From the NCBI GenBank assembly GCA_004322205.1, contig SCSN01000009.1:29836-93835 (forward strand): a stretch of DNA of 64,000 bases, read 5' to 3'. Position 1 is the first letter of the stretch. Each line of letters opens with the position of its first letter. The DNA is from Patescibacteria group bacterium. Its GTDB lineage: Bacteria > Patescibacteriota > Minisyncoccia > Phycocordibacterales > Zambryskibacteraceae. The position numbers were made by a program, and so were the translations under genes. The notes under the pieces are model-generated. The model saw only the letters and a list, made by a program, of their open reading frames with translations, ran no database searches and was not told the origin of the DNA. Of the stretch, positions 4,442 to 61,589 are shown piece by piece.

Positions 4442-4943
4442 ATTGTTACCCAAATACGCGTTTTTTATTGCTGGAACCGGCAAGCACAAAGATAGACTGC
4501 AAGCTTTTGACCGCGCTCTGCTTGCTGCCGGCCCTGTTGCTCATAATTTAGTTAGCGTTTCGAGCATTCTTCCTGCTGAATGCAAAATCATACCCGCGGG
4601 GAAAGGTTTTCGTTTGCTGACTCCTGGCCAAATAACTTTTTGTGTTATGGCAAGGCAAGATACAAACCAAAAGAGAAGAATAGTCTCGGCCGCTGTTGGA
4701 GTGGCCAAAACCAAGGCGTCGAAAGAATTTGGATATATATCCGAATACCATGGAAATGCGTCTAGTAAATATACTGCAGAGGGAGCCGCAAAAAGATTAG
4801 CCGTTGAGATGCTCGCTAAGAAACTTGCGATTCCGCCCAGTCAACTCAATCTGAAGTTTACAAAGGCGGTGGCTGCTTCTATCAAACAACCGGGTGACGA
4901 TAAATGGGTTTGTGCTCTTGCGCTTTGCGTGTTTGTTACCTGA
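4425..4943 (+). CDS. pdaD: pyruvoyl-dependent arginine decarboxylase
   Basis: 172 aa; AFDRALLAAG...NLVSVSSILP self-cleavage Ser-Ser motif, architecture typical of PdaD/AaxB. Confidence 0.7.
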   Translation: MSTQNKLLPKYAFFIAGTGKHKDRLQAFDRALLAAGPVAHNLVSVSSILPAECKIIPAGKGFRLLTPGQITFCVMARQDTNQKRRIVSAAVGVAKTKASKEFGYISEYHGNASSKYTAEGAAKRLAVEMLAKKLAIPPSQLNLKFTKAVAASIKQPGDDKWVCALALCVFVT

Positions 4944-6666: not shown

Positions 6667-6723
6667 TGAGTATAGCTCTTTTTACAAAAGCACTATATTA
6701 TATATAGTGAAATATACCAAAAA

Positions 6724-7563: not shown

Positions 7564-7577
7564 TTTTTGTTCTGACC

Positions 7578-7865
7578 ATGGCAAACTTTGATCAAATTGT
7601 AGTAAGAATAATTAAAGAACAGGAACTCATTATAGGGCCTCTTGCCTGGTCTGAAGCTGAAAGAGTCCAAGGTATTACGGTACTTGACAGAAAAAAAGCC
7701 GAGATTATTCTCAACAGTGCAGATCCGAAACACGTAGTAGATCAATTGGTTGGTCAATACGAACGGCTCTTTGGCAGAGCTTCACATGAAGTGTGTAAAG
7801 AGGCCGTGGTGGGGATACTTGCTGATCTTTTGCCAAACGAAATACCCGCCAGTTTAAAAGGCTAG
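7578..7865 (+). CDS. hypothetical protein
   Basis: 95-aa ORF tightly linked upstream of the histidine kinase gene. Confidence 0.3.
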   Translation: MANFDQIVVRIIKEQELIIGPLAWSEAERVQGITVLDRKKAEIILNSADPKHVVDQLVGQYERLFGRASHEVCKEAVVGILADLLPNEIPASLKG

Positions 7866-7869
7866 GCAA

Positions 7870-9273
7870 ATGGCTGTTATAGGAAAAGAAGGGGAAAACT
7901 CGCTAAACCACGAACAGGAATTAAAGACTGTTACGGAAAGCCTTTATAAGCAAAACCTTGAGCTCGCCGTAAAAAACAAAACTCTTTCGCTTCTCCGCCA
8001 GCTCTATCAAATAAGCATTCTAACTCTTGAGCCGAAAATACTGGCAGAAAAACTTGGGGACACAATCCGAGAAACATTTGAATACGAATTAGTTGGTTTT
8101 TTCTCCTTTGACAAAGAAGAAGACACATTCATACCAATGTATTTTTCGCAGTCGGATCGCTGTGCCAAGGCTAGTTCCCGGGCTGAAGTATCTTTCATTT
8201 CTCTTCGGCTCAATCAGGTCTCTCGACACAACTTGTTTGCCCAAGTGCTCAAGGGCAGCATGGCTTATACCGAAAGCTTTCAGGATGTTTGGGGAGAAGC
8301 AATTTCAGGAAAAGATTGGACGGTAATTCAAAATGAATCTCGCGTCAAGGGCGTGCTTTTCTTTCCGCTTTTGATAGATGAAAAAGTCATTGGTGTATTA
8401 ACAATTGCTCTCAACAGAAGATATAAGGAGCTCATCCAATTTGAAAAAGATTCAATTCAGAGTTTTGTCAATGTTTTGGCCGTGGCACTTGATCGCGCTT
8501 ATTTGTATCAAAAATTAGGAGTTACAAACAAAGAATTGGCCGAAGCAAATGACCGCTTGAAAGAGTTGGACAGATTAAAATCTGAATTTCTTTCTTTTGC
8601 CAGTCATCAGATTCGGGCACCTCTCACCGCCATTGGTGGCTATGCTTCCATGCTCCTGCAGGGAGATTTCGGAGAGATGCCGGAGCAGATACGAAATTCG
8701 GTGAAAACAATAGATATATCTTCAAAGGAGCTTATTAAAGTTGTCAATGATTTTCTTGATATTTCCCGGATAGAACAGGGAAGAATGAAGTACGAGATGA
8801 CAGATTTTGATTTTAGGAAAGCGATTGAAGAAATTATTGATGAGTTTCGACCCAACATGGGGAAAAAAGGACTTTCCTTGGAATTTGAGGCTGCTGAAAA
8901 ATTATCATATATGATAAGTGGGGATGCGGGTAAAATAAAGCAAGTTGTGGGGAACATAATTGATAATGCCATTAAGTACACAGAACACGGGGGAATAAAA
9001 ATAAGTCTAGAGCGCACAGGCAGTAATATACGGCTTGCAGTCTCCGATACCGGCATTGGTATTGCTCTCGAAGATATCCCAAAACTTTTTTCTAAGTTCA
9101 GCAGGTCGAGAGATGCGCACAGAACTGACGTTACCGGCACAGGGCTCGGTCTCTACCTTGCCAAGCAACTCATCGAAGCTCATAAGGGCCGCATTTGGGT
9201 AGAGTCGGAAGGAAGAGGGCACGGCTCAACATTCTTTATCGAACTTCCAGCAAACGTATACCCCGTGAGATAA
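7870..9273 (+). CDS. cytoplasmic sensor histidine kinase (coiled-coil/GAF-like N-terminus, HisKA, HATPase_c)
   Basis: H-box SHQIRAPLTAI; G-box GTGLGLYLAKQL; no TM segment; no response regulator adjacent. Confidence 0.85.
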   Translation: MAVIGKEGENSLNHEQELKTVTESLYKQNLELAVKNKTLSLLRQLYQISILTLEPKILAEKLGDTIRETFEYELVGFFSFDKEEDTFIPMYFSQSDRCAKASSRAEVSFISLRLNQVSRHNLFAQVLKGSMAYTESFQDVWGEAISGKDWTVIQNESRVKGVLFFPLLIDEKVIGVLTIALNRRYKELIQFEKDSIQSFVNVLAVALDRAYLYQKLGVTNKELAEANDRLKELDRLKSEFLSFASHQIRAPLTAIGGYASMLLQGDFGEMPEQIRNSVKTIDISSKELIKVVNDFLDISRIEQGRMKYEMTDFDFRKAIEEIIDEFRPNMGKKGLSLEFEAAEKLSYMISGDAGKIKQVVGNIIDNAIKYTEHGGIKISLERTGSNIRLAVSDTGIGIALEDIPKLFSKFSRSRDAHRTDVTGTGLGLYLAKQLIEAHKGRIWVESEGRGHGSTFFIELPANVYPVR

Positions 9274-9407
9274 TAAAGTTTATGTACTACCCCTTGATGC
9301 GGGCAGTATCTAGGTCTAAAGAGATGATTAGCCAGTAGCCTATTGAGTATCTCATGGGGTATAGCTTGTCATAGGAGACTTGTGCGTCTTTCAAAAAAAG
9401 CTCTGTT

Positions 9408-10406
9408 TTGCTATCATTTTTCGATATGAGCGTCAAAAAAATTCTTCTTTCCGGGATACAACCGAGCGGACGGGTTCACATTGGGAACTATTTCGGCGCC
9501 ATGAAGCAGTTTGTTGACCTTCAAGATACCTATGAAAGTTACATTATAATTGTCGATCTCCACGCCCTGACTTCCACCCAAAATCCTGAAGAACTTCGAC
9601 AAAACATCATTGATCTTGCCATTGACTATCTGGCCGTCGGCTTGGATCCGAAGAAAATTACTCTCTATAAGCAATCTGATGTGCCGCAAGTGACCGAGCT
9701 GGCGTGGATTTTTGAATGTATTACCACTATGCCGTATCTCTCCCGCGCTCACGCCTTTAAAGACGCGCAGACGCAGGAAAAAGAAGTGAATGTCGGAACC
9801 TTCAACTACCCAATGCTCATGGCGGCTGACATTCTGATTCAGGACACGGACATCGTTCCGGTTGGTCAGGACCAGAAACAGCATGTTGAAATTTCCCGCG
9901 ACACCGCCGAGAAGTTCAATCGAACTTTCGGTGAAACGTTTAAAATTCCAGAGCCGTATATTCTCCCGTCTGTGCAAACCTTTCCGGGCACCGATGGACA
10001 GAAAATGAGCAAGAGCTACGGAAACACCATTGGTCTTTTCGCCTCGGATAAGGAAATCAAAGAAGCGGTAATGAAAATTCCCACCGATTCAAAAAGTGTT
10101 GACGAGCCGAAGAACCCGGAAACTGACAACGTCTTCGCTTTGCACAGATTTTTCACCGCAGGACCGGAGTTTGACGAATTGCGCGATCGCTACGAGGCCG
10201 GCGGCATCGGCTATCAGGAGTCGAAAGAGATTCTTGTCAGAAATATCAACCGGTTCATCGCTCCCTTGCGCGAGTCACGGGGAAAACTTGAGAAGAATAT
10301 GAAGATGGTTCTGGAGGTGCTCCGTGAGGGAGGGAAGCAGGCGAGCAAGCGGGCAGAGGAGAAAATGAGCGAGGTTCGAAAGCGCATTGGGATAACTTTA
10401 CCGTAA
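9408..10406 (+). CDS. trpS: tryptophanyl-tRNA synthetase
   Basis: GIQPSGRVHIGNYFG (HIGH-type) and KMSKS motifs; 332 aa. Confidence 0.9.
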   Translation: MLSFFDMSVKKILLSGIQPSGRVHIGNYFGAMKQFVDLQDTYESYIIIVDLHALTSTQNPEELRQNIIDLAIDYLAVGLDPKKITLYKQSDVPQVTELAWIFECITTMPYLSRAHAFKDAQTQEKEVNVGTFNYPMLMAADILIQDTDIVPVGQDQKQHVEISRDTAEKFNRTFGETFKIPEPYILPSVQTFPGTDGQKMSKSYGNTIGLFASDKEIKEAVMKIPTDSKSVDEPKNPETDNVFALHRFFTAGPEFDELRDRYEAGGIGYQESKEILVRNINRFIAPLRESRGKLEKNMKMVLEVLREGGKQASKRAEEKMSEVRKRIGITLP

Positions 10407-10407
10407 C

Positions 10408-11703
10408 GTGAAAAAGACTATCCACACGCGAGAAGTTTCGGCGCACGCCGGCAAGACGGTAACGCTCCAGGGCTTTGTTCATGCTCTTCGAGTCCAGAGC
10501 AAAATAATTTTTTTGATTCTGCGTGACGTCACCGGTACTATTCAGGTAGTGATTCCCGAATCGTCGCATCTTTTTGAGCATGCCAAAAACCTCTCTCTTG
10601 AATCTGTTGTTCGCGTCGCTGGTTTAGCGAAGGAAGAGAAGAACGCACCCGGTGGTGTTGAGATTCACCCCGATACTCTTGAAGTACTCTCGTCATCTGC
10701 TCCGGAGCTTCCCATTCCCGTGGTCACCCTGAAGGGCGGTGATGAAACGGAGTCTCCGACTCGCTTCGATTTTCGCTGGATTGACTTGCGCAAGCCGGAG
10801 AAGATAAAAATTTTCAAGATCTGGACGGAGTTTGAAAAAGGATTTCGCAAATTTTGGTATGAGAATGACTTCATCCAGATCTATACGCCTTCCTTTATGA
10901 GCACACCGAGCGAATCAGGCGCTGATGTTTTTGAAGTTGATTATTTTGACAGGAAGGCATATCTTGCGCAATCTCCACAATTCTACAAACAGATGGCGAT
11001 TGCTTCCGGTTTTGAAAGAGTTTTTATGGTCGGTCCCGTTTTTCGTGCCGAACCATCTTTCACTACACGGCATCTGACAGAGTTTACCGGTTGGGATTTT
11101 GAAGTGGCATATATTGACTCGCATCATGATCTTATGGATCTTGAGGAGAGAATGATTATTTCCGGCTTTCAGGCCGTGAGTCATACTTTTCCCGAGATCG
11201 CTCTTCCCATCCCGACACAGCCGTTTCCAAGAATTCCCATGGTTGAAGCAAAGAAAATTCTCCGGAGACTGCGGGTAATCTCGCCGGAAGAACACGATCT
11301 TTCGCCGGAGGAGGAACGCGCGCTTTCTGTTCACGTCACCAAGGAAATGAAGCACGAATTTGTTTTTGTCACCGACTATCACAAGTCAATGAGCGCTTTC
11401 TATCACATGCGTCATCCCGACGATCCTGATCGCGCCCGCCGAGCAGATCTCTTGTTCCGGGGCGTTGAAGTAACTACTCTTGCCCAGCGCGAACACCGAC
11501 CCGAAATTCTTGAGAAGCAGGCAAAGGAAAAAGGATTGAAGCTCGAGCCGCTTGCCGATTATCTTAACTTCTTCCGCTACGGCTGCCCGCCGCACGGTGG
11601 AGCCGGTATCGGACCGGGCCGCTTCATTATGAGTATGCTAAATCTCGGCAATATCCGCGAAGCTACTTTCCTGCCGCGGGACGTAAAACGTCTGAACCCT
11701 TGA
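10408..11703 (+). CDS. aspS: aspartyl-tRNA synthetase, archaeal/eukaryal type (class IIb)
   Basis: 431 aa; motif 2 FRAE; motif 3 GCPPHGGAGIGPGRFIMSMLNLGNIREATFLPRDVKRL typical of archaeal-type AspRS (AsnRS not fully excluded). Confidence 0.75.
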   Translation: MKKTIHTREVSAHAGKTVTLQGFVHALRVQSKIIFLILRDVTGTIQVVIPESSHLFEHAKNLSLESVVRVAGLAKEEKNAPGGVEIHPDTLEVLSSSAPELPIPVVTLKGGDETESPTRFDFRWIDLRKPEKIKIFKIWTEFEKGFRKFWYENDFIQIYTPSFMSTPSESGADVFEVDYFDRKAYLAQSPQFYKQMAIASGFERVFMVGPVFRAEPSFTTRHLTEFTGWDFEVAYIDSHHDLMDLEERMIISGFQAVSHTFPEIALPIPTQPFPRIPMVEAKKILRRLRVISPEEHDLSPEEERALSVHVTKEMKHEFVFVTDYHKSMSAFYHMRHPDDPDRARRADLLFRGVEVTTLAQREHRPEILEKQAKEKGLKLEPLADYLNFFRYGCPPHGGAGIGPGRFIMSMLNLGNIREATFLPRDVKRLNP

Positions 11704-26966: not shown

Positions 26967-27410
26967 TCAAACACTTTGAATATCGGGGTTAGCATCTATG
27001 AGAGATTTGGGTGCACGATAATAATACCAGTTTTTTTCTCGCGTTAAATTATGTTTTTGTTCGTGCGCCAACCCACAAATATTTTCTTTTATTTTTATGG
27101 TTTTTTCTTCGAAGAGTGAATCTGGTAAAACAAGTTTTTTTTCAACTTCTTTTTGTTCTTCTGAACTTAATTCGGTAAGAACAATGTCAATCGCACTTCT
27201 AACATCAAGATTGTTAGTATACTCATATATATCATCTTCCATTTCTACATCTTCCGTTATTTTTTCCCATCTGGGAATTAAATAGTTTAAGCCGTCCTTA
27301 ACTATAAAGTCGGCGTAACCTTCTAATCTTTTTTTTATTTTTTCTGTATGCGGGTAGGGCATAATTTGTATCTGACTTATAACTGGTTTTGAATTAATTG
27401 CTTCTCCCAA
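26967..27410 (-). CDS. candidate cognate immunity protein of the main RHS toxin
   Basis: 147-aa acidic ORF whose start overlaps the RHS stop by 17 nt (27394..27410). Confidence 0.45.
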   Translation of the reverse strand: MGEAINSKPVISQIQIMPYPHTEKIKKRLEGYADFIVKDGLNYLIPRWEKITEDVEMEDDIYEYTNNLDVRSAIDIVLTELSSEEQKEVEKKLVLPDSLFEEKTIKIKENICGLAHEQKHNLTREKNWYYYRAPKSLIDANPDIQSV

Positions 27411-30400
27411 ATCGCCGAGAAAACCTTGCGGCTGCTTGTTGCAACCTAATAACTTGCGCCTGTAACGAAGACACGTCAGAAGCAGAGAGACTTAATCCGT
27501 TGCTCCAACCAGAATATGAAGCTCCACTTGAAGGTTTGAAGTATGTATGCATTGTGACACCCCCAGTATTTTGATTCATGCTGAAAGACGCGAAGGAATT
27601 TGTTCTCGTGTCATAAGTGTTAATTCTTCCTCTGGTTTTATCAAACCTAAGTGGATACTTACCACTAATAGCATCTGTAACAAACTCACGAGCTGATTCT
27701 ACATACTCTTTTGTATTTGTTGTTCCAAAGTCAGCAGCATGATCTGCCGCGTGTTTTGTAGCATTTGCAGCGCGATTCGCCATAGATCCTTTGCTCCAAA
27801 CGCCTTCAAAATTAATATTTGGCTTCGGCGAATTTGGCACTGGTCTAGCACCGACGGTTGCGAGTGGCGCAGCATCAAAGTAAATCTGTGGTTGACTAGC
27901 CGCTGCATATGCTTCTGGTTCGTACACAGGATCTGGAGATAGGGGACGAGGCATAAACAGTAACATTCCAATAATCCCCCATGGTGTAGGTGGAACTTCT
28001 AATCCCTGTGGATCCTTGTTTACAATTGGGTTATTATTTGCATAAGCATAACTATTCATTTGCTGGGGATTGGAGAGAAATATTTCTAAGTTTTGAGTGC
28101 TTAATCGTTCAAGGAGCGAAGAACCAATTTCTAAAAACACCGGATCCTGACTGGCAAACCTCCCAATACGACCGTCATAGTATCTGACATTGAGGTAAGA
28201 CAATGCGGTCTCTGTATCATACTCCTGCCCTATGTATTTCCTTGATTCATTGTACGTTGTTTGCTTCTGGTCTGTTCGGAGTTCTCCAAAGGGAAAGTAG
28301 TCAATGAGCTCATTTAGAGTTGATGAGGCGTCGGTAATAACTGTAGAGCCTTGGAGGTGGTCGGTGTGAACGTAATAAGTGGAGGTGCTTGTCGTACTGG
28401 ATCGAATGGAAGCCAGTAACATTCCGTTGCTGTAAATATGCTTGTCTCGTGTAGTGGTGGCTGATACGTCATAGTACATGTTGGGGTAGTAGGTGGCGGT
28501 AGTTCCCACCTGATACTTGACTCTAGCTCCAGCATGATCGTAGGCCATCTGCATCGTACTCGTCGCCTTCGTTATCTTTGTAATCCAATTGTTGTAATTC
28601 CAAGTACTTGTCGCTATCCCCCCTATCCCCAGCATATTCCCATTGTTGTCGTAGGTATAGGGAGCGTTCCAGACTTTGGTAACAGCCTGGGGGTTAATGT
28701 AGCCAGAATCAGTGTAGGTGTAATTCCCTTTGTCGCTCTTCCTCGTAATGTTCCCTATGGCATTGTACATCACATCATGTCTGAAATTGCTCCCGTAGAT
28801 GGCAACAGAGCTTGAAGCAATCACCAATCTATTCAAGTCATCATAGTAGAGATCCAGTGTCTTTTTCGAATTTGTGCCTGATTGATCCACAATTTTGGTT
28901 ATATTCCCCACCGCATCGTAGGTGTAAGTGATGTCTTGCAACACATCAGAGGAAGAGGCGTTGACGTAGTTTATTTCCAAATACGGGTCAGACGATGTAC
29001 CCGCTTGTTCAGAGCTGTACATGTGGATGCCGTGGAAGCCGGGTGGAGTGGAGCTGGCGATGTCATGGTCGGCTTCACGGATGGCGATGAGGGTGGTGGA
29101 GGTGGGAGAAATCCAGCTTGTTCCGGTGGCATTGAGGTACCATTTGTTGTAGCCAATGAGAAAGTCAGCGCTGTTTTTTCTTGTTGCTCCCTCATCGGGG
29201 TTATTGATAGTCATTCTGGAATAATCGGAATTTTGTAGGAGTGTGGTAGAGGCTTGGTTGCTTTTAACAATTGCCATATTACCTCCATCTTGCTTGGCGT
29301 AGACATAGATATTAAGAGATGCAGATGTAACAGTAGCGTTTGAGCCAAGAGAGGAAGTGTCAAAAACGTAGAACTGACGAGAATTACCAAGATAATAGCC
29401 AAAATCAGTATATGCTCTGGCCGTCCCTTGATATGAATCCCCTCCATAGTAATTGGCAGATGTTGTAGCTCGAATATATGACCAAGGGCGACATGCACAA
29501 GCATCGCCGCCATATGCGGAATCGTCGATAAATGCCAAGCCGCCGTCTCCAGAGCCTGAATATGGGCTAAGGGTGAGATCGGTGCGGACCGGAAAGACTG
29601 TCGTTTTGAAGTAAGAGGCCGGGAGAATCTTGGTAACTTGAATGTTTGTACCTATTTTCTCGTAACGAATTGAGATGGGCCGTAAATGCGCTCGATTGGC
29701 GTCAGAATCATCTATGTACGGGGCGCGAATATACGAAACTCCTCCGCGGTCATCAATGATTTTTGCAGGATTGGCGGAAACAATTGTTCCGGCTTGGCTT
29801 AATCTTTTACCTTCTACCTCAATGTCCAAATCGCCTGAACTGGTGATTTCAAATAGTATTTCGTAGTCAGTGCCCGTGGCGAAGGTTTGGAGCGTCTGAC
29901 TATTTGCAATCACAAACTCTTTGGTAAGTGATACATCACCAAGCGACACTACCATGTCGGCGCCGGACCCCAGATAATTTTTATATGTAACTCTCTTCCC
30001 TGCCCACATGGGATCGGTCAATTCCTTTTGGACCGTAGCCGATGAAGTTGCCGCCTGCGGGAATGTAAGTGAGAGTATTTGACCACCGTTTTCAAAAGTG
30101 ATGGGAGAGTTTGTCGGCGATTTATCAAGTGTCGCTTTATACGGAGCCTTGTACATAAGCCAATTGTTTTGGCCGTCAATGAGGATAGTGTCTATCTCCG
30201 AAAGATTTCCTGCGCTGTCCCGATAGAAGATGTCGCCGGAGTAAAACTGCCCTTGGCGGATTTCATTGCCTTGGGGGTCAAAACCTATGAGGTAAGTCTT
30301 GCTTCTGGAAGTTCGCAGGTCATCTTTTTCAAACGGTTGATTGAGTATATAGTTCCCGTTTTCATCCACGACAGACTGCTCCGCCCGCAGATAGTCCTCC

Positions 30401-33400
30401 ATACTTGCATAACCCATAAATCCCTCTCCGCCAGTTCCGCCCACTTTAGTTGTGATTTTTTTCTGAAGGCGATAGAGTTCATCGGGGTTGTAGACGAAGT
30501 AGCTCTCCGTATTGTTGGCGTAGTAAATATATGAAGGTTGGCCAGTCGGAGCATAGTCAATGTCTGAAACCACATCCGTAAAGCCGCCGCCGGCAGTTTC
30601 TTTCTTCTCAACTTTCTCAACCTGTCCGCCGTTGTTGTACGTGTAGCGAGACTCAAAGAGGTCGGGATAGACGATGTTTACGATATTTCCCTGCCTGTCG
30701 TAGGCGTAGGTAGTTGTTAGATTATTGGAATTTATCTTTTTCAGTTCTGTTACCACACGGCCGAGGGGATCATAGGTATAGACTGTATTTGCTCCAGTGC
30801 TTGTGGCCGCACAGAGTTGCCCCTTGCCGTTGGTACAGCCGTCGTAGCTGTACGTTACCTCTACTCCGGTCAGTCCTGTGAAGTCTTCCGTCAGAACTCT
30901 GTTAATTCCGTCGTACGTAAAATTAACTTTCTGGTTTTTCTGATCATAGCGCTGGACAAGATTACCTGCGTTGTCGTAGACATAAGTTGTTGAAGCAAAC
31001 GTGGAGTCAGCGGATGCGTGGAGATCCTCTGCTTTTGTACGCCTGCCGAGGCCGTCGTAGGTGAAGTTGCGGACGTTTCCGAGCGCGTCGGTGATTTTCG
31101 TCAGATTTCCGAGCCCATTATAGAGATAGTTGGTCGTGTAGGTGGACGTCGCGTTAATCTCATCTACCTTTGTGAGGTTGTCATACGCGTCTTTGTATAG
31201 CTTCTTTTGCTTGCTGCGGGCATCGGTAACAGTCAGCACCCAATCGTCATAGGCGTTAGTAGTACTCCCCACTGCATTTGTAATCTTTGTCACTCTTTCC
31301 AGCGGGTCATAGGTATAACTGATCTCGAGCTTCGAGGCGGTTGAGGTGGAAGAGCGGCTCGAGCCTTGGGCAAAGTACGGCAGAGTTTCTTTATCAAGAA
31401 GGCCGATGTTGTTGTAAGTATATTCCTTTACAACAAATTCGCTCGTATTCTCCGCCTCTTTTCTCTCTTGGAGAATGCGGTTGAAGCCATCAAGGTATGA
31501 GTAGGTATCTACGATGTTGGAACTATCCAGGTAGTCACTTCTTTTTACAACTGTCGGAACCGTATTGTCCGTATAAGTGAAGGTTGTTTTTGTCTCAAGG
31601 GTGGAAGAGGTTGAAGTGCTTGGCTGTTTTTCTTCTGTCACACGATCGAGGCCGTCATAGGTTGTTTGGAAAACGAAATTATTGGGATCAGTAAATTGTT
31701 TTACCTTGCCAGAGGAGTAGTCATATTGGTATCCAAAGTTTTGGCTTACTGCGTTTGTTGTTGTTGCCGGGTAAAGATTGTTCGCATCATATACGTAGGT
31801 AGTGTTGTTCCCCCTTGGGTCAGTATCGGTAGTGACTAAGCCGTAGCTATTGTATGCCTTTGTGGATGAGGCGTAAGCCGAGCCAGTTTTCCAGAGTTCC
31901 TGCTTGGTAAGATTTCCTTTATCGACATTGCCGTAAGAGAGGGTGTCGTAATAGAGCTTTGTTTCTTTGACTTTATTTGAGCTCTGGTCAAACATTCCCT
32001 CTTGGGACAGGAGATTCACTGAAACGGAGCTGGTGGCGGAGCTTGTGGCGTAGGTGTAGTTAAAGGTGAACTTGTCTGTGCCCGCATCTGTAAATGTCCC
32101 GTCATCGCTTGCAGTTACTTCACCCCAGAGAGTCTTTTGAGAGAGATTGCCGGCGCTGTCGTCATAGACATAGCTTTCGGCCTTGTGTTTGGAATCAGCA
32201 TCACCGTCCTGCGCCCAGTCAATAGTCTGCGTAAGCTTTACATAGTGGCGATCGTTCGCTAACCCGACATTCTCCCACTTGTTAATCTTTTTAGAGTAGA
32301 TGTTGTTCGACGCGTCAGTGATTTCAGTCCTATAGGTTTTACCGATTTTCGAGACGTGATCACTAAATTCGCCGAGAGATGAATCTGTGGTGTTTCCTTG
32401 GTGGTAATATGTTTTAACTTTGGTTCCAGCATCGTTACTCCTCGTGGTACTGGCAAATCCAGCTAGACGTCTGTCACGGCCAGTGTTGAAATAGAATCGC
32501 CCATCGGAATAGGTGTAGCTAACTGCTTCAGTATTGTTGACTCCGTTGCTCTTGGTGATTTGGGAAACTGTGTCAAGAATAATCGGAAGCTTGGGATTAA
32601 GAAGGTTTCCTCCGGATGCTGTATACAGCGGAGTTTGTTTGTAGGTAATATCGTGAGTGGCTCCTTTATCTGTAACAATTTTTATTAGTTGATCCGTTCG
32701 CGAAGGATTGGCGAGACGAATAGTATTTTGCGTTGAGTTGGCACTCCAGTATATCGACTGCAAGATATCGGGTATGGCATCCCCGTCAACATCGGCCATG
32801 CGCACCCCCTCGTCTTGATCAAAACCATTTGCAAAGTCTACGGGCGGGTCCCAAGAAGGATCGGTTATCTCTACCCACTGTTTCCCGGTATTTTTAGAAG
32901 TGCCGCGGAGGGTAAGCGGCGGATTACCGTTATAGACGTAGGAGGAAATCATATCCGTCAAGTTGTCGCCGTTGACATCGGCATAACGCACTCTCATGGA
33001 AACCGATGCGGTGTAGCCAGTCTGGCTTTTCCAGCCATTGCCTGTATTCATGTGAGTTGTAGTGGAAGTGAGAAAATCATAAAGCCCGTCTGCATTGACA
33101 TCCAAAAGCTGAATATCATCGGTTATCCCATCCGTGGCAAAGGACATGGGGTTTTTCCAGCTGGCTGATTCCGTCCAACCGGCGCCGTTATTCATATATA
33201 TTTTGTTGAATTGCTGGGTGCTGGTCGCATGAGAATAGAGAATATCTACGAGGCCATCGCCGTTTACATCACCTAAACGAACCCCATTGTCTTTCTCGGC
33301 GGCAATAAAGTATTCCGGCGGCTGCCACGTTGAACTTTCAGACCAACCAGAGCCAGTGTTTAAATATGTTTTCTTTGTAGTCGAACCACTGCCTGCATCA

Positions 33401-34995
33401 ATTGCCCAGAGAACATCGATGAGAAGATCCCCGTTTACGTCTGCAAGTCTCACGCCATCGTCTTTCCCATCTTTCACAAAGTGCACTGGGAATTGCCAGC
33501 TTGAATCGTAACTCCAAGTGAGGTTGCCTCTATTATTGAGATAAATTTTTTGAGTAGAGGATGCAGAACCTTCGAGCTCTGACCAAATGAAATCGGCGAG
33601 CGCGTCCCCATTTACGTCTGCCATACGCAAACCTTTGTCGGTGCGCGAGGTTCCGTCCTTGATAAACCACATCGGAATGGTGCCGGAGGCGGCAGGATTC
33701 GGATCCCACCCATTAGCAGTCAAGGTATTTCCATAAGTAAAGGAGGTCTGCGGAAGAGTGATTTCCGTCCCCAAATCATCCTTGCCAGTTTCCACAATGC
33801 CTCCCAGCAGTTTTCTTTCTCCGTTTTCAGCCAAGGCAGAATTGAAGGTGTATTTTCTAACCCAAGAACCGTTAACTTTGGCTTGCACTTCGTTTATGAA
33901 ATACTTGGTAACAACTTCAAAGGCGGGCCGGCTTGAGGTGGCGTAGCCGGCAGCGCCGCGATTCTGGCGGAAGAATTCAAGCTCGAAGATACCGTCTGTT
34001 ACTCCGTTGCCGGTGTATTTGATTTTTGAGGGGTAAATGTATCCTGCTCCTTTGTAATACTCGTATTTTATGTAGTTATCATTTCTGTCTCGCACTTCCT
34101 CAAGCATCCAGCGATAGATCTTCGTTCCATCAGATGGATCATCCATTCTTGTGCTAGTGGAGTAGCCGAATTTGTATTGTGTCCCGCTTTTGTCTGTTAC
34201 AAGCCACGTATTACTAGAAAAGGTATATGCCCTGAACGCCCCATTTTCGTACTTCGCTCCGTAAGCCGTAGTTGTAGTAGAGGTTGTGGCAAGTTCCCCG
34301 TCAAAGGAAGAGGTAAAATAAGTTGAAGAATATAGATTGTCGGAGCCGGTGCGATTGAGACGCTCAATGTACGGAATATCCAAGTTCCAGCCGTAGCCGA
34401 ACCAGTTTACGTCGTCTGCCGTTTGATTGTTGTAGTAGAGGGTGGCGCTTGGAGTCAGACCGTTTCTGCCGGGCGACACAGTCAGTTTGTATTGATAATT
34501 GAACGAACCTGCATAGGAATCCAGTGTGAAAGCGATTCGCAGTTCTTCGTCTTTGCTCCGATCCCTAATCGGCAAATCAGAAGACTCGCCGAGAAGCGAC
34601 AAGATACCAGCTTCCCCTTCTCCAGCGGGCTCTTCATCTGTTTTCTGCTGGGGCGCTCCGTTCTGGTTTGTCTGCTCGCCCGCGACCTCGCCGGGCGGAG
34701 TACTGGGGTTGCCTGCGGCTTGCCCCGCCGATTCATTTTGATTTGCTTCTGTCGGCTTGTTCCCCGATATCCCGGGAGTAACAGAAAATTCAACATCAGC
34801 CGGACTCTCAACAGGGATATTTTGAAGAGCACCGCCGACATTCGGAGTATTCGGCTCTTGGTTCAGAGTCGCCGTCTCTTCCTGCGCGGAAACAAAGAGC
34901 GGCTGGAGGAAAAAAGAAAATACTAACGTCAAAGACGTTAGTATTTTCAAGCACTGCCGCACCTTGAGAAAATCAAAAGTACGCCTCGCCCTCAT
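27394..34995 (-). CDS. giant secreted RHS/Tc-toxin BC-like polymorphic toxin
   Basis: 2533 aa; signal peptide; Pro/Gln/Gly-rich linker; SpvB-like GYGWNLDIPYIERL segment; six or more DVNGD(G)xxD FG-GAP/VCBS-like repeats; tens of YD repeats; PIVNKDPQGLE core boundary; then an about 200-aa unique C-terminal domain. Confidence 0.9.
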   Translation of the reverse strand: MRARRTFDFLKVRQCLKILTSLTLVFSFFLQPLFVSAQEETATLNQEPNTPNVGGALQNIPVESPADVEFSVTPGISGNKPTEANQNESAGQAAGNPSTPPGEVAGEQTNQNGAPQQKTDEEPAGEGEAGILSLLGESSDLPIRDRSKDEELRIAFTLDSYAGSFNYQYKLTVSPGRNGLTPSATLYYNNQTADDVNWFGYGWNLDIPYIERLNRTGSDNLYSSTYFTSSFDGELATTSTTTTAYGAKYENGAFRAYTFSSNTWLVTDKSGTQYKFGYSTSTRMDDPSDGTKIYRWMLEEVRDRNDNYIKYEYYKGAGYIYPSKIKYTGNGVTDGIFELEFFRQNRGAAGYATSSRPAFEVVTKYFINEVQAKVNGSWVRKYTFNSALAENGERKLLGGIVETGKDDLGTEITLPQTSFTYGNTLTANGWDPNPAASGTIPMWFIKDGTSRTDKGLRMADVNGDALADFIWSELEGSASSTQKIYLNNRGNLTWSYDSSWQFPVHFVKDGKDDGVRLADVNGDLLIDVLWAIDAGSGSTTKKTYLNTGSGWSESSTWQPPEYFIAAEKDNGVRLGDVNGDGLVDILYSHATSTQQFNKIYMNNGAGWTESASWKNPMSFATDGITDDIQLLDVNADGLYDFLTSTTTHMNTGNGWKSQTGYTASVSMRVRYADVNGDNLTDMISSYVYNGNPPLTLRGTSKNTGKQWVEITDPSWDPPVDFANGFDQDEGVRMADVDGDAIPDILQSIYWSANSTQNTIRLANPSRTDQLIKIVTDKGATHDITYKQTPLYTASGGNLLNPKLPIILDTVSQITKSNGVNNTEAVSYTYSDGRFYFNTGRDRRLAGFASTTRSNDAGTKVKTYYHQGNTTDSSLGEFSDHVSKIGKTYRTEITDASNNIYSKKINKWENVGLANDRHYVKLTQTIDWAQDGDADSKHKAESYVYDDSAGNLSQKTLWGEVTASDDGTFTDAGTDKFTFNYTYATSSATSSVSVNLLSQEGMFDQSSNKVKETKLYYDTLSYGNVDKGNLTKQELWKTGSAYASSTKAYNSYGLVTTDTDPRGNNTTYVYDANNLYPATTTNAVSQNFGYQYDYSSGKVKQFTDPNNFVFQTTYDGLDRVTEEKQPSTSTSSTLETKTTFTYTDNTVPTVVKRSDYLDSSNIVDTYSYLDGFNRILQERKEAENTSEFVVKEYTYNNIGLLDKETLPYFAQGSSRSSTSTASKLEISYTYDPLERVTKITNAVGSTTNAYDDWVLTVTDARSKQKKLYKDAYDNLTKVDEINATSTYTTNYLYNGLGNLTKITDALGNVRNFTYDGLGRRTKAEDLHASADSTFASTTYVYDNAGNLVQRYDQKNQKVNFTYDGINRVLTEDFTGLTGVEVTYSYDGCTNGKGQLCAATSTGANTVYTYDPLGRVVTELKKINSNNLTTTYAYDRQGNIVNIVYPDLFESRYTYNNGGQVEKVEKKETAGGGFTDVVSDIDYAPTGQPSYIYYANNTESYFVYNPDELYRLQKKITTKVGGTGGEGFMGYASMEDYLRAEQSVVDENGNYILNQPFEKDDLRTSRSKTYLIGFDPQGNEIRQGQFYSGDIFYRDSAGNLSEIDTILIDGQNNWLMYKAPYKATLDKSPTNSPITFENGGQILSLTFPQAATSSATVQKELTDPMWAGKRVTYKNYLGSGADMVVSLGDVSLTKEFVIANSQTLQTFATGTDYEILFEITSSGDLDIEVEGKRLSQAGTIVSANPAKIIDDRGGVSYIRAPYIDDSDANRAHLRPISIRYEKIGTNIQVTKILPASYFKTTVFPVRTDLTLSPYSGSGDGGLAFIDDSAYGGDACACRPWSYIRATTSANYYGGDSYQGTARAYTDFGYYLGNSRQFYVFDTSSLGSNATVTSASLNIYVYAKQDGGNMAIVKSNQASTTLLQNSDYSRMTINNPDEGATRKNSADFLIGYNKWYLNATGTSWISPTSTTLIAIREADHDIASSTPPGFHGIHMYSSEQAGTSSDPYLEINYVNASSSDVLQDITYTYDAVGNITKIVDQSGTNSKKTLDLYYDDLNRLVIASSSVAIYGSNFRHDVMYNAIGNITRKSDKGNYTYTDSGYINPQAVTKVWNAPYTYDNNGNMLGIGGIATSTWNYNNWITKITKATSTMQMAYDHAGARVKYQVGTTATYYPNMYYDVSATTTRDKHIYSNGMLLASIRSSTTSTSTYYVHTDHLQGSTVITDASSTLNELIDYFPFGELRTDQKQTTYNESRKYIGQEYDTETALSYLNVRYYDGRIGRFASQDPVFLEIGSSLLERLSTQNLEIFLSNPQQMNSYAYANNNPIVNKDPQGLEVPPTPWGIIGMLLFMPRPLSPDPVYEPEAYAAASQPQIYFDAAPLATVGARPVPNSPKPNINFEGVWSKGSMANRAANATKHAADHAADFGTTNTKEYVESAREFVTDAISGKYPLRFDKTRGRINTYDTRTNSFASFSMNQNTGGVTMHTYFKPSSGASYSGWSNGLSLSASDVSSLQAQVIRLQQAAARFSRRFGRSN

Positions 34996-35060
34996 AAATT
35001 TATCTTATGCGCTTTTGCGATATAAAACAGTGCCGCATCTGTGGAATACATGTGGAAAAC

Positions 35061-57934: not shown

Positions 57935-58372
57935 CTAAAATACTCCGATTTCGCCGAGTTTCTCCGCCATGGCGTCGGCGCTTTTCTCGATCCGCTTTTT
58001 ATACTCGGACCAAGCCCTGTCGTTCCAGATCTCAATGCGATCGTAGACGCCGGCAAAGATTACCTTGCTCTTGAGATTGGCGTAGTCGCGCAAGAATTCC
58101 GGGATGAGAATCCGACCGATGGAATCCACTTCGACTTCGACCGCTCCGGCGAGCATGAAACGGCCAAAAGCACGGGTATCGCTTTTGGCAAGCGAGAGAG
58201 CGCCCAATTTGCGGGCAATCACCTCCCAGGCCTTGAGTGGGTAGAGAAGGAGGGAATTATCGAGGCCGTGAGTCACCACAACTTTTTTGCCGAGAGCTTG
58301 ACGAAATTTCGACGGCAGCGAGACCCGTTTCTTTTCGTCAACAGTGTGCGTGTATTCTCCGATAAATGCCAC
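57935..58372 (-). CDS. mraZ: transcriptional regulator MraZ (GTG start)
   Basis: (M)AFIGEYTHTVDEKKRVSLPSKFR with duplicated SpoVT/AbrB-like halves. Confidence 0.9.
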   Translation of the reverse strand: MAFIGEYTHTVDEKKRVSLPSKFRQALGKKVVVTHGLDNSLLLYPLKAWEVIARKLGALSLAKSDTRAFGRFMLAGAVEVEVDSIGRILIPEFLRDYANLKSKVIFAGVYDRIEIWNDRAWSEYKKRIEKSADAMAEKLGEIGVF

Positions 58373-58384
58373 GATAGATTTTCT

Positions 58385-58599
58385 TGAACCTTGAGCGAAG
58401 CAGTTAGAAAATCATCACCCAGCACTTATTTACGAAGACTGACAATAAGATGTAAAATAAAGGGTATTGACCCTTTATTTCAACTTCGCTCGGACATCGT
58501 GAGAGATTATTCTCAACATGTCTCTCGCTCGTTGAAATAAAACGGCAGCAGGTTTTACTTTCCTAAACTTCAGTCTCCGCGATAAGTGCTGGGTGGTGA
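58385..58599. repeat. ORF-less copy of the IR-bracketed element (MITE-like) in the mraZ leader
   Basis: 18-bp inverted repeat TCATCACCCAGCACTTAT (58412..58429) / ATAAGTGCTGGGTGGTGA (58582..58599) enclosing about 150 bp of hairpin-rich non-coding DNA; the same arms bracket the GIY-YIG gene at 60.7 kb. Confidence 0.55.
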
Positions 58600-58792
58600 A
58601 AAACATGTTTTCCGCCAACTAACGGATCATTGTTTTTCTACCACTTTTTCCCACTCACTTTAAATCGTATAACACTTATTCCCACTGCGTGAAACCTTTT
58701 ATCCACACTTTTGGTGAACTATGGTACACCTTCTCACAAAAAACCCGACTCGAAGTCAGAGCTTCTCGTCGGGGCCGCATCGGCGTACAACC

Positions 58793-59197
58793 TTACCGTT
58801 TGTTGACAAGATACAGAGCCAGAGCGGCGAGAGCGACGCCAAGCCATTGATGCGGTGTAAGCCGCACACCGAAGAACACCGTACCCAGAACCATCGCCGC
58901 CACCGGAAAGAAACCGGTGATGAGAATGATCGCGGCTGTGATATTCTCGTTTGGCGCGTGATTCAGCGCAACATTGAAGAACAGCAAGCCGGTAACACCA
59001 AGCACGGCTCCCAGAACCTCGTTTCTTGCAGACAGTCCGGTAATCTCTGCTGTCGTCAGGACAAACTGCCCTCTGCCAAAGAAAAGCAGAGAGACAGTCA
59101 AAATGATGTAGCACATGGTATTTAGAAAAATATTCACTCCAACGCCATGTACCACCACAACCCTGCGGCTGTAGAAGCCAAACAGGGACCACGTCAT
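58793..59197 (-). CDS. small EamA/DMT-family membrane protein
   Basis: 134 aa with four TM helices, EamA-like half-transporter pattern. Confidence 0.45.
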   Translation of the reverse strand: MTWSLFGFYSRRVVVVHGVGVNIFLNTMCYIILTVSLLFFGRGQFVLTTAEITGLSARNEVLGAVLGVTGLLFFNVALNHAPNENITAAIILITGFFPVAAMVLGTVFFGVRLTPHQWLGVALAALALYLVNKR

Positions 59198-59205
59198 ATT
59201 CTACT

Positions 59206-60684
59206 TTACTCGCCTTTGCGAGGCCGTAAGGTCGGAAAGAGAATCACTTCCTTGATATTTTTTACATCAGTCAGAAGCATTGCCAGGCGGTCAATGCCGA
59301 TGCCGATGCCGCCGTTTGGCGGCATGCCGTACTCCATCGCCTCGAGATATTCTTTATCGCTTGGAGAAATTTCCGCCTCTCCTGCTTGTCCCTTTTTATC
59401 CTCTTCAAGATAGCGTTCGCGCTGATCGAGCGGATTGTTTGTCTCGGAAAAAGCATTGACTAGCTCCAAACCGCCGATTACAAGCTGAAATCGGTCAATA
59501 AGCGATGGATCGTCTTCTTTTCTTTTGGCGAACGGGTTGGTGGCAACCGAAAAGTCAACGACAAAAGTCGGTTGAATAAGTTTCGGCCGCACCACTTTTT
59601 TGTAAATATTGTCTAGAATTTTTTCGAGCGCTTCCTCGTCCACCACTTCTATTCCCAGCTGGCGAGCGCGAACTGCCACTTCGCTTCGCGTGATTGATTC
59701 AGGGTGTATGATAAGTGCCCAGCGCCGCAGCAAATCATAAAATGTAACGACGCTGAATTTTTTGCCGAAATCTATTTCCTTGCCGCCGTAGATAATTTTT
59801 GTCTTGCCAAAAAGTTTTTTCACCACCTGTCTGAAAAGTTTCTCAATGAAATCCCGCTGGCTTTTGGCATCGGCATAGGCTTCGTTGGACTCAAGCATGG
59901 TAAATTCCGGGTTGTGCAAATGGTCAATGCCTTCGTTTCTAAAACGCCGCCCCAGCTCATAAACTTTTGCAAAGCCGCCGGCCAGAAGCTCTTTGAGATA
60001 AAGCTCTTGAGCCGTGGGCAAATAAAAATCCGCTTCAAGAGCGTTGTGGCGTGTGACAAAGGGCCTGGCCGTCGCTCCGCCGGCAAGCGGCTGGAGCTCC
60101 GGCAGTTCAACCTCCAAGTATCCAGCGGCATTGTAAAACCCCCGAATTTCCTCAATCATCCGAATCCGCAGGAGAAAGCGTTCTTTAACCCCGGGATTCA
60201 TAAGAATATCTAGATAACGCCGACGGAAGCGCTCCTCTACGTCCTGAAGCCCGTGCCATTTCTCCGGCAGAGGCCGCAGAGACTTGGCAAGCATCCGCCA
60301 AGAGTGAACAAGGATTGTTTTTTCCTTGCGCTTAGTGAGAAAGAGGTTACCTCTGACTTCTATGAAATCACCGACGTCAACCGTTTCACCGAACAGCAGA
60401 AAATCTTCGTTGGTTACCTTTTCACCTCGTTTGAGAGCTCCTTGAAACTTCTCCGTATCGTCAAAAAAATGGAAAAAAATGAGTCCGCCCTGCGCTCGCA
60501 ATGACATAACGCGCCCGACAAGAGAAATTGCCTTTTTCGATTGGGAGAGCCTGCCGAAATTTTTCACAACCTCGGCGAGCGTATAGTCTTGTCTTGCAGA
60601 AACAGGGTAAGGGTTAATACCCTTTTCTTGCAGGAGTTTGAGTTTTTGGAGCCGCGTATTTCTTATTTCATCTAGTGAAGCCAT
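59206..60684 (-). CDS. lysS: lysyl-tRNA synthetase (class II)
   Basis: OB-fold N-domain; motif 2 FRNEG; GGATARPF; motif 3 GIGIDRLAMLL. Confidence 0.92.
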   Translation of the reverse strand: MASLDEIRNTRLQKLKLLQEKGINPYPVSARQDYTLAEVVKNFGRLSQSKKAISLVGRVMSLRAQGGLIFFHFFDDTEKFQGALKRGEKVTNEDFLLFGETVDVGDFIEVRGNLFLTKRKEKTILVHSWRMLAKSLRPLPEKWHGLQDVEERFRRRYLDILMNPGVKERFLLRIRMIEEIRGFYNAAGYLEVELPELQPLAGGATARPFVTRHNALEADFYLPTAQELYLKELLAGGFAKVYELGRRFRNEGIDHLHNPEFTMLESNEAYADAKSQRDFIEKLFRQVVKKLFGKTKIIYGGKEIDFGKKFSVVTFYDLLRRWALIIHPESITRSEVAVRARQLGIEVVDEEALEKILDNIYKKVVRPKLIQPTFVVDFSVATNPFAKRKEDDPSLIDRFQLVIGGLELVNAFSETNNPLDQRERYLEEDKKGQAGEAEISPSDKEYLEAMEYGMPPNGGIGIGIDRLAMLLTDVKNIKEVILFPTLRPRKGE

Positions 60685-60692
60685 GATAGATT

Positions 60693-61017
60693 TTCTTGAG
60701 CAAAGTGATTAGAAAATCATCACCCAGCACTTACAACAGAATCTTTTATCCTTTGCTTTAATCTGGATCTCGCTTGGTCGTAATCTTTCAACTTTCTCTC
60801 TCGCCATCTAGCATCGCTTTCAGATAAATATTCTTCGTAGTATATCAACTCCCAATTCCTTCCGTGCTCCTTAGCTCGGCGGCGGAGATTATCAGTATAG
60901 CCATAATATAGCTCACGCCTGCCATACTTATACTTCAGGCAGTAAACATAATACATGTAAGTGCTGGGTTGTAGAGATTAAATAAAAACTGCGTTTTTAT
61001 TTAATCTCTACAACCTT
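60693..61017 (-). mobile_element. candidate IR-flanked GIY-YIG mini-element
   Basis: CCCAGCACTTAC immediately 5' of the ATG and GTAAGTGCTGGG forming the last four codons; the same arms plus a shared about 60-nt leader recur upstream of mraZ. Confidence 0.4.
60720..60956 (-). CDS. small GIY-YIG nuclease-family protein
   Basis: 78 aa; YYVYCLKY...GYTDNLRRRAKEH pattern (GIY ... YIG, R, E). Confidence 0.7.
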   Translation of the reverse strand: MYYVYCLKYKYGRRELYYGYTDNLRRRAKEHGRNWELIYYEEYLSESDARWRERKLKDYDQARSRLKQRIKDSVVSAG

Positions 61018-61461
61018 ATACGTCATTGTACCAGAGGGTGTGGAGAATGAGAATGTTTCCCCTTTTTTCTTGCCGAGAACCGCATGACCGAAGGGAGACC
61101 GGACCGAGACTTTTCCGTTTGCCATGTCGGCTTCCTCGGTGCCAACAATGGTGAGTTTCTTTTTTTCTTTGTCGCTGTCTTTGACAACAGTGACAACAGA
61201 GCCGATCGTTACCGAGTCGGTAGCATGAGATGAGACAATGGTTGCCGACTTCAAAATGTTCTCGAGCTTGGTAATACGCTCTTCGGTGCTCGCCTGCAGG
61301 TCGCGCGCTTCGTGATACTCAGCATTTTCAGCAAGGTCGCCCAATCCTTTGGCGTACTCCAAACTCTCCGCCACTTCCTTACGTTTGACGGTTTTGAGAA
61401 ACTGGAGTTCTTTTTGGAACTCCTCGTATTTTTCTGGGGTCAAGTACTCGTGTTCCTGCAT
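60997..61461 (-). CDS. greA: transcription elongation factor GreA
   Basis: MQEHEYLTPEKYEEFQKELQFL N-terminal coiled coil plus FKBP-like C-domain; the ORF is open to 61521, start chosen by homology; promoter TTGACA-N16-TACAAT at about 61471..61500. Confidence 0.85.
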   Translation of the reverse strand: MQEHEYLTPEKYEEFQKELQFLKTVKRKEVAESLEYAKGLGDLAENAEYHEARDLQASTEERITKLENILKSATIVSSHATDSVTIGSVVTVVKDSDKEKKKLTIVGTEEADMANGKVSVRSPFGHAVLGKKKGETFSFSTPSGTMTYKVVEIK

Positions 61462-61589
61462 AAGAATGAAAGACAATTGTACACCCCGCGCCGGAGCTGT
61501 CAATGAAAATAAGACCCGCAAGCCAACTCTGGAAAAGCTGTGGGTATTTTGGGGAAAAAGTTGCTTGACAACCGCGGTAGCTTTGAGAG

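Follow-up and report, generated by a model that had tools for sequence, protein, structure and literature searches.

A repeat-bracketed GIY-YIG gene in the greA-lysS spacer of a Patescibacteria genome, a probable member of a widespread group of hairpin insertion cassettes

INTRODUCTION

The intervening sequences (IVSs) of bacterial 23S rRNA are repeat-bracketed, open reading frame (ORF)-carrying insertions for which excision by RNase III is established and a mobile origin has been proposed (PMC4990558). The origin and spread of these IVSs have been an open question since 1990, and the proposed mobile origin has never been tied to an enzyme (PMC4990558). Here we describe a 78-amino-acid (78-aa) GIY-YIG ORF that is bracketed by inverted repeats and lies between greA and lysS in a 64,000-nucleotide (nt) stretch of a Patescibacteria group bacterium genome (contig SCSN01000009.1, positions 29,836 to 93,835; this whole stretch is called the window, and coordinates refer to it unless another locus is named). 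The repeat pair around the ORF is called unit B, and a second repeat pair in the window, which encloses no such ORF, is called unit A. Our assessment, made with moderate confidence, is that unit B is probably the ORF-bearing member of a widespread group of IVS-like hairpin insertion cassettes, with a nuclease gene at the dyad of a palindrome.

The IVSs of Salmonella, Leptospira, and Coxiella lie in 23S helices 9, 25, and 45, and some carry an S23p (PF05635) ORF. Like these IVSs, the cassettes have a terminal inverted-repeat stem that encloses a small ORF, their distribution is sporadic, and a mobile origin is proposed for them; moreover, cassette relatives at loci L100 and L091 are in the same 23S and 16S helices. 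In contrast to IVSs, the window units lie outside rRNA, one of them in an mRNA spacer and the other in a 5' leader, the cargo of the cassettes is a GIY-YIG nuclease gene rather than S23p, the core of the arms is conserved across phyla, and there are ORF-less palindromes and two further hairpin modules, H1 and H3. Of the features by which an IVS is recognized, stem-forming terminal inverted repeats are present in the window units, whereas location in an rRNA helix is found for L100 and not for the window units. Cleavage by RNase III, which is established for IVSs, is for the cassettes putative.

GIY-YIG ORFs in nonintron rRNA insertions of Candidate Phyla Radiation (CPR) bacteria have been noted as unlike homing (Brown et al. 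2015, as reported by Tsurumaki et al. 2024, PMC11270868). As far as the main text of the latter paper goes, the proteins and the organisms concerned are of the same kind as for the cassettes, whereas that text deals with rRNA only, mentions no ORF-less partners and no tRNA or operon-spacer sites, and contains 0 occurrences of the term "inverted repeat." Since IVSs and the rRNA GIY-YIG ORFs of CPR bacteria are already known, the cassettes are not a categorically new system. In the literature on GIY-YIG proteins with inverted repeats, miniature inverted-repeat transposable elements (MITEs), and UPF0213, we found no account of a repeat bracket as a hallmark, and no description of ORF-less partners, of tRNA or operon-spacer sites, or of a wide phyletic spread.

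RESULTS

The features of unit B and its surroundings, in the direction of transcription, are the following.

60997-61521, minus strand: greA, upstream neighbor of unit B
60967-60989 and 60993-61015, minus strand: H1, a perfect 23-bp hairpin (arms 100% complementary) with a 3-nt loop
60956-60969, minus strand: left repeat arm of unit B, ACCCAGCACTTACA, which abuts and overlaps the ATG of the ORF
60720-60956, minus strand: ORF for a predicted GIY-YIG nuclease of 78 aa, UPF0213/Slx1-like branch, with all family-invariant residues present
60722-60735, minus strand: right repeat arm of unit B, TGTAAGTGCTGGGT, which carries the final four codons and stands ahead of TGA TGA
60685-60721 (37 nt), minus strand: H3, a conserved hairpin module, GATGATTTTCT..AGAAAATCTATC, which ends immediately before the lysS ATG
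59206-60684, minus strand: lysS, downstream neighbor of unit B, with its ATG at 60682-60684

The initial annotation of this DNA had placed a small GIY-YIG gene precisely between inverted repeats. This holds, and the 12-nt arms that it gave, CCCAGCACTTAC and GTAAGTGCTGGG, extend to a perfect 14 nt. The left arm stands directly ahead of the ATG, and the right arm encodes V-S-A-G and then TGA, as had been noted. The homolog sample came from a one-genome-per-species scan that yielded 239 relatives; 80 loci from many phyla were kept, and statistics refer to 84 loci. The best repeat score between the flanks of the window ORF is 14, compared with a mean of 6.4 and a maximum of 11 for shuffled flanks (420 shuffles, flanks of the 84 homologous loci). 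Short arms (12 to 14 nt), and nothing more, would favor a chance repeat or an assembly artifact. This explanation is refuted by the fact that no shuffle reaches a score of 13, by the occurrence of the same arrangement on the independent contigs L001 and L002, and by the second repeat pair in the window and the family-wide conservation described below; we regard its probability as negligible.

The hairpin that overlaps the greA stop codon had been described as a 21-bp stem starting at 60969, as the terminator of greA, and as sharing its stem with the repeat arm. A hairpin is present there and does overlap the stop codon, but it has 23 bp and starts at 60967. Its 5' arm consists of the last five codons and the stop codon of greA, and its 3' arm is an inverted copy of that stretch. 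The greA C terminus, VVEIK*, is native (it is identical in L111), and therefore what forms the 3' half of H1 is host sequence in an inverted copy. The other two parts of the description are not supported. H1 and the left repeat arm have only 3 nt (ACC) in common, and H1 does not look like a canonical Rho-independent terminator of greA: the stem is A/T-rich rather than G+C-rich, it is followed by CAGCACTTACATG with no T tract, and the terminator scan does not call it. We found no target-site duplication at unit B and no simple extension of the repeat into its flanks. A gathering-threshold Rfam scan of the window and an E-value scan of 58300-61100 gave no relevant RNA family and no intron model, and the promoter scan gave no convincing match to an outward promoter in the module next to lysS.

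A hairpin analogous to the greA-derived H1 is seen at L003 (4926-4985), where the 3' end of ruvB makes a 13-bp hairpin, AATTTACAAAAG..CTTTTGTAAATT; at this locus a third, direct copy of AATTTACAAAA adjoins the left repeat arm. Upstream of greA lies a near-consensus sigma-70-type promoter (61476-61503, minus strand; TTGACA, 16 nt, TACAAT; 11/12 matches). It is the only strong promoter in the scan and is the likely source of a greA-cassette-lysS transcript.

Units A and B are insertions. Relatives whose GreA is 73 to 79% identical to that of the window keep the gene order mreB-mreC-PBP2-greA-lysS-mraZ-rsmH, and their greA-lysS spacers are 8, 58, and 53 nt long, compared with 312 nt in the window, and contain no GIY-YIG gene. 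Unit A is likewise absent from the mraZ leaders of the relatives L110 to L114. The proposal of a self-contained insertion between greA and lysS thus stands as far as insertion is concerned, but the inserted block is larger than the stretch from repeat to repeat, since it also takes in the 37-nt H3 module.

A search of the 64 kb with the 12-mer (≤1 mismatch) finds only four occurrences, which form two inverted pairs, at 60723/60957 (unit B) and 58418/58582 (unit A). The features of unit A are the following.

58582-58594, minus strand: left repeat arm of unit A, ACCCAGCACTTAT, in which one C of unit B is replaced by T, with a compensating change in the partner arm
58430-58581, minus strand: 152-nt interior of unit A, which lacks a GIY-YIG ORF and is predicted to fold as a long rod (z-score of -9.3)
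58417-58429, minus strand: right repeat arm of unit A, ATAAGTGCTGGGT
58373-58416, minus strand: H3 of unit A, GATGATTTTCTAAC..AGAAAATCTATC, which ends at the mraZ GTG start codon (58370-58372)

On one side of unit A is the conserved MraZ-box promoter region, and on the other is the mraZ start. Beyond the right arm, units A and B have 37 to 44 nt alike (GATGATTTTCTAA..loop..AGAAAATCTATC), which in both cases reach exactly to the next start codon. In contrast, their interiors are unrelated (z-score of 0.6), and by tblastn there are no further GIY-YIG copies in the window. We considered whether unit A might be a decayed GIY-YIG gene or a deletion derivative; this was ruled out, since ORF-less interiors are unrelated to the ORFs (z-scores of 0 to 2).

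Two further observations concern this leader. Inside unit A is a terminator-like hairpin (58453-58482, minus strand; 13 bp and a T-rich tail), which could attenuate transcription of the mraZ-rsmH cell-division cluster. GTGGG(A/T) repeat boxes and a promoter-like region are conserved ahead of mraZ (about 58600-58720 in the window, 5000-5134 in L110, and 5200-5330 in L112), and the boxes look like MraZ operator repeats.

ORF-less units are not confined to the window. In L017, L058, L075, L076, L082, L091, and L100, the neighborhood of the ORF-bearing unit contains ORF-less arm pairs identical to its own, and further ORF-less units are found at L103 to L109. An exact-pattern scan of metagenomes gave four independent ORF-less sites with the window's right end, at pilT/pilC, at murA/mreB, and ahead of rpsS and of recR. 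The minimal ORF-less units are 29 to 46 nt long and are near-perfect palindromes, equivalent to both arms joined. L024 and L103 share an orthologous pilT-pilC junction (protein identities of the flanking genes, 67% and 54%), and at this site L024 has the ORF while L103 has a 46-nt palindrome alone. Repeats that occur elsewhere without the gene are the opposite of what the initial annotation had said would refute it, namely relatives with the gene but no repeats and repeats that never occur elsewhere.

The window protein matches the Pfam GIY-YIG family (PF01541; E = 2.9e-5, 24.7 bits against a cutoff of 22.6 bits), and a profile of 35 homologs matches the UPF0213 structures 1zg2 (E = 1.4e-6) and 1ywl (E = 9.6e-6) as well as Slx1. 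An AlphaFold2 model (pLDDT of 89.5) has the topology E-E-H-E-H, which is a three-stranded sheet flanked by helices, and its top Foldseek matches are UPF0213 protein BH0048, Slx1, and the I-TevI catalytic domain, with probabilities of 0.96 to 0.99; owing to the shortness of the domain, the E-values are no lower than 0.05. Among solved structures, the nearest are those of UPF0213 proteins BH0048 and EF2693, of the nuclease domain of Slx1, and of the catalytic domain of I-TevI. In the 35 homologs Y5, Y17, G19, R27, and E53 are invariant and H31 is nearly so, and all are present in the window protein; we take the five invariant residues to be the GIY-YIG active site, by analogy with I-TevI Y6, Y17, R27, and E75. 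No NCBIfam or PHROGs family was assigned to the protein. Based on profile matches and the predicted fold, it is a GIY-YIG superfamily protein of the UPF0213/Slx1 branch, with predicted endonuclease activity. By sequence and fold, the closest relatives of the cassette protein are UPF0213 (YhbQ/YazA-type) proteins and the domain of Slx1, a structure-specific nuclease whose substrates are branched and hairpin DNA. In contrast to them, the cassette protein has no partner domain and is shorter, its 76- to 78-aa forms lacking the loop between H31 and the third strand; the family is a candidate for a very small sequence- or structure-specific nuclease. We found no association of UPF0213 with repeats in the UPF0213 literature.

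The repeats are a conserved hallmark of this gene family across many bacterial phyla. A bracketing repeat with a score of ≥13 is found at 72 of the 84 loci (median score, 17), with arms of 13 to 35 nt. Among 40 distinct arm pairs, pairing holds in 93.9% of cells, and double changes occur at 14 of 18 pairs; the arm covariation score is 0.688, compared with 0.162 for shuffles and 0.08 to 0.19 for slid registers. The conserved arm core is NCCNNNCAC...GTGNNNGGN, with positions C2, C3, C7, and C9 invariant, and the arm sequence varies by lineage (ACCGAGCACATAA, ACCCCACACCCAGCA, GCCCCTCAC.., CCCCCACACCAAA..), both arms changing together. The AUG lies -6 to +10 nt from the inner edge of the arm at 59 of the 72 loci, and the stop codon lies -25 to +10 nt from it at 69 of 72. 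A subfamily in Omnitrophota has extended repeats of 30 to 35 nt and flanking hairpins that are inverted copies of each other. A profile search found 1,124 cluster representatives at E ≤1e-10. "TPHPAM"-type N-terminal extensions of database proteins are the translated left arm, so many database proteins carry false N-terminal extensions, which is an annotation issue.

The H3 module is also shared beyond the window: it is common to units A and B and to L003, L011, L024, L103, L104, L105, and L107. It has 12 consensus pairs, 3 of them with compensatory changes, and its stem joins the UGAUGA of the stop region to the AUCAU(G) downstream. The loops of H1 and H3 are complementary, and their stems are A/T-flipped.

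The closest homologs (61 to 67% identity) bear ACCCAGCACTTA arms at differing sites, and the left arm of unit B recurs around homologs in L003, L013, L022, and L024. Sites of homologs include ruvB/yebC (L003), ftsE/ftsX (L011), response regulator/pilin (L013), and pilT/pilC (L024). Outside rRNA, the neighboring genes are co-directional with the ORF in 45 cases versus 3 upstream and in 43 versus 7 downstream; the median gaps are 55 nt upstream and 60 nt downstream, and these gaps tend to fold as hairpins. These sites bear on one conventional explanation, a free-standing homing endonuclease gene of the phage Seg/Mob type that targets the greA-lysS junction, next to which the repeats would be incidental terminators or attenuators. 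The gene is indeed small, intergenic, co-oriented, and absent from relatives, and its product has a fold resembling the I-TevI catalytic domain. However, the protein has no DNA-binding domain and no PHROG match, close homologs are at differing insertion sites, and the repeats are not terminator-like. The repeats are also conserved, co-varying, and found without the gene, which largely refutes this explanation, and we consider it very improbable.

The comparison can be extended to intron-borne homing endonuclease genes (HEGs) and to I-TevI and Seg of T-even phages. The cassette has the same GIY-YIG catalytic fold; as in intron-borne HEGs, the nuclease gene sits amid its presumed target in a carrier that is removed at the RNA level (for the cassette, putatively), and as in HEGs the cassette is far more conserved than its flanks. 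In contrast, the cassette has no ribozyme (by Rfam), no group I or group II intron, and no DNA-binding domain, and its presumed target is a dispersed palindrome at diverse sites rather than a unique conserved gene site. An HEG is expected to have one target site with empty alleles; here, empty alleles exist and same-site spread is indicated by L013 to L016 (see below), but close homologs are at different sites.

About 8 of the 84 loci lie within rRNA genes. At L100, three ORF-less units and an ORF-bearing unit with one common arm sequence are all inside rRNA genes (small-subunit gene, 4689-6274; large-subunit gene, 6549-9984). For units of the GCCCCTCAC subfamily, the end of the right arm falls within nt 1 to 4 of a tRNA gene; such tRNA-adjacent units are found three times in L082 and also in L051, L056, L072, L086, and L099. 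At most of these units there are 4- to 5-nt direct repeats (GGTTA, CAGTA, and CCGTA) that overlap the tRNA 5' end. At L086 (9976-10574), two identical 297-nt ORF-bearing units are in tandem, with GGTTA between them, immediately 5' of a tRNA-Val gene.

A separate feature of the L100 rRNA operon, which has the four hairpin units, is a set of group II intron domains at 10446-10759, directly after the 5S rRNA gene.

The direct repeats and the tandem pair are among the points in favor of a transposon, in which the GIY-YIG protein would be a transposase that cuts at the terminal repeats, by cut-and-paste or copy-out, while the ORF-less units would be nonautonomous and the RNA stem irrelevant. The invariant core of the terminal repeats, the presence within one genome of ORF-less units that share the arms, and the diversity of insertion sites are also consistent with this. 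Against it, GIY-YIG enzymes hydrolyze DNA and are not known for strand transfer, and no target-site duplication was found at the window units or at the rRNA sites. The bias toward sense orientation and the flush placement at start codons and at tRNA position +1 are unexpected for a DNA-only element, and near-identical cassettes at the same site in diverged genomes resemble allele-to-allele homing. We consider a transposon of this kind unlikely. Of the features of insertion sequences and MITEs, terminal inverted repeats are present, and the sole ORF encodes a GIY-YIG protein, which belongs to none of the known transposase classes (DDE, HUH, serine, or tyrosine). The cassettes do resemble MITEs and the repetitive extragenic palindromes (REPs) with their associated transposases (RAYTs) in that a single gene is flanked by inverted palindromic repeats that are also dispersed gene-free in the genome. 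In contrast to RAYTs, the cassette enzyme is GIY-YIG rather than a Y1 HUH transposase, and in contrast to both REP/RAYT systems and MITEs, the cassette repeat brackets the ORF within 0 to 10 nt, the copies are few, their orientation goes with host transcription, and the interiors of ORF-less units are unrelated.

Spread and selection could be followed where the same site is occupied in different genomes. The L013/L014 and L015/L016 cassettes are 99.6% identical, with 1 difference in the 237 nt of the ORF, compared with 84.4% and 67.9% identity in the flanks. The near-identical block comprises about 345 nt, with the 3' half of H1 at one end and the final base of H3 at the other. Recent allele-to-allele spread would be expected to leave such a pattern. 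In other pairs, the ratios of synonymous to nonsynonymous codon differences are 20:3, 17:8, 10:6, and 24:12; since synonymous differences outnumber nonsynonymous ones, the protein is under purifying selection. In contrast to the L013-L016 block, the L022 and L023 cassettes diverge at about the rate of their flanks.

The L022/L023 pair would fit a resident, nonmobile, and vertically inherited host module, in which the stem would hide the AUG of a potentially toxic UPF0213 nuclease or RNase III would uncouple greA from lysS. The position of the AUG and of the stop codon, at the stem's inner edge, the pairing by H3 of the nuclease stop region with the downstream start codon, and the fact that UPF0213 proteins are ordinary bacterial genes are consistent with such a device as well. 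However, the cassette is absent from syntenic relatives, nearly identical arms occur in unrelated operons, tRNA leaders, and rRNA helices, ORF-less copies exist, and at L013 to L016 a cassette with 99.6% identity is set in flanks with 68 to 84% identity. A host device is in our view decidedly improbable, although less so than a Seg/Mob-type gene.

DISCUSSION

Our preferred interpretation, an IVS-like hairpin insertion cassette, draws on architecture, insertion status, distribution, and conservation patterns, all of which are observed. How such a cassette would work involves DNA cleavage by the nuclease and stem cleavage by RNase III, which we infer. The predicted fold of units A and B consists of H1, a long-range stem of the arms, and H3, with z-scores of -5.0 for unit B and -9.3 for unit A. 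A role at the RNA level is favored by the sense orientation, by the flush placement at tRNA position +1 or at a start codon, by the rRNA-helix sites, and by the conserved H3. A role in recognition of DNA by a protein is favored by the rarity of G-U pairs in the arms and by the invariant core positions, and minimal units that are palindromic through the center, beyond what RNA folding explains, also favor the DNA level. We propose that both levels may operate.

At the DNA level, a Slx1/UPF0213-type nuclease, probably as a dimer, would recognize the palindrome or an extruded hairpin and would cut ORF-less or empty copies, and repair from an ORF-bearing copy would then spread the gene in a homing-like manner. 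The two arms would be half-sites that are kept apart, and so protected, in the ORF-bearing form, and colonization of new sites would be rare. At the RNA level, the arms would pair as a 12- to 25-bp stem whose inner edge holds the AUG and the stop codon, and a double-strand-specific RNase (RNase III, as for rRNA intervening sequences) could excise the cassette from the host transcript. The putative cleavage stem of the greA-cassette-lysS transcript is ACCCAGCAC/GTGCTGGGT. After excision, H1 and H3 would cap the greA and lysS messages. Excision would leave the insertion nearly harmless and would free a near-leaderless nuclease mRNA.

Several results weigh against this interpretation. For every member, nuclease activity, its target, and RNA cleavage are deductions from sequence, and the 78-aa protein is a catalytic domain only, with no DNA-binding or other added domain. 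No clear repeat is found at 12 of the 84 homologous loci, the window units have no target-site duplication, and the window holds one ORF copy only and no empty palindrome within 2 mismatches. The longer ORF-less interiors share nothing with the ORF, so these units are not simple deletion derivatives. Within-genome paralogs, except for one tandem pair, are only 78 to 87% identical, which means that transposition to new sites is rare or ancient. G-U pairs occupy about 12 of 720 cells in the arms, and the excess of G-U over A-C mismatches (37 versus 19; P = 0.02) is inflated, because an ancestral G-T in Omnitrophota is counted repeatedly; with G-U pairs rare and the mismatch test inflated by shared ancestry, the RNA stem is left without independent demonstration. 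Finally, the model leaves unexplained why H3 ends at the downstream start codon and why the 3' end of greA is present as an inverted copy.

A further-reaching possibility, which we put forward tentatively and hold with less confidence than membership in an IVS-like group, is that the cassettes are an unrecognized minimal mobile class, represented in at least ten bacterial phyla and made up of a palindromic carrier with a catalytic-only nuclease of 76 to 85 aa at its dyad, which would home via NCCNNNCAC half-sites or the hairpin. If this is true, such elements would home into empty palindromes and occasionally colonize new sites that are structured and transcribed (rRNA helix tips, leaders of tRNAs, and stop-start junctions), and the class would supply the long-missing mobility engine for bacterial rRNA intervening sequences. 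The combination of a stem-plus-ORF design with a nuclease, one arm core, and a homing-like signature makes the question of IVS origin directly testable. Cassettes can fill the entire stop-to-start spacer of essential operons (greA-lysS, ftsE-ftsX, and ruvB-yebC) in reduced CPR genomes, and such filled spacers bear on how gene expression in these genomes tolerates insertions.

ADDITIONAL OBSERVATIONS

Genes for the PF05635 "23S rRNA intervening sequence protein" are found at L013 (5690-6149) and L014 (5738-6192), 1.6 kb downstream of the GIY-YIG unit, in a spacer between protein genes that leads from pilin genes to a secretion ATPase gene. Each is bracketed by long inverted repeats, of 45 nt (89%) in one case and 42 nt (88%) in the other, with arms that differ between the two loci. 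Since these genes are repeat-bracketed in a spacer, the classical IVS ORF family has a stem-enclosed design outside rRNA too.

At L014 (366-2224), two LAGLIDADG_2 ORFs lie upstream of the GIY-YIG locus; they are probably in rRNA introns on the same contig. In the window itself, an ORF of about 2,536 aa is present at 27394-35004 on the minus strand.

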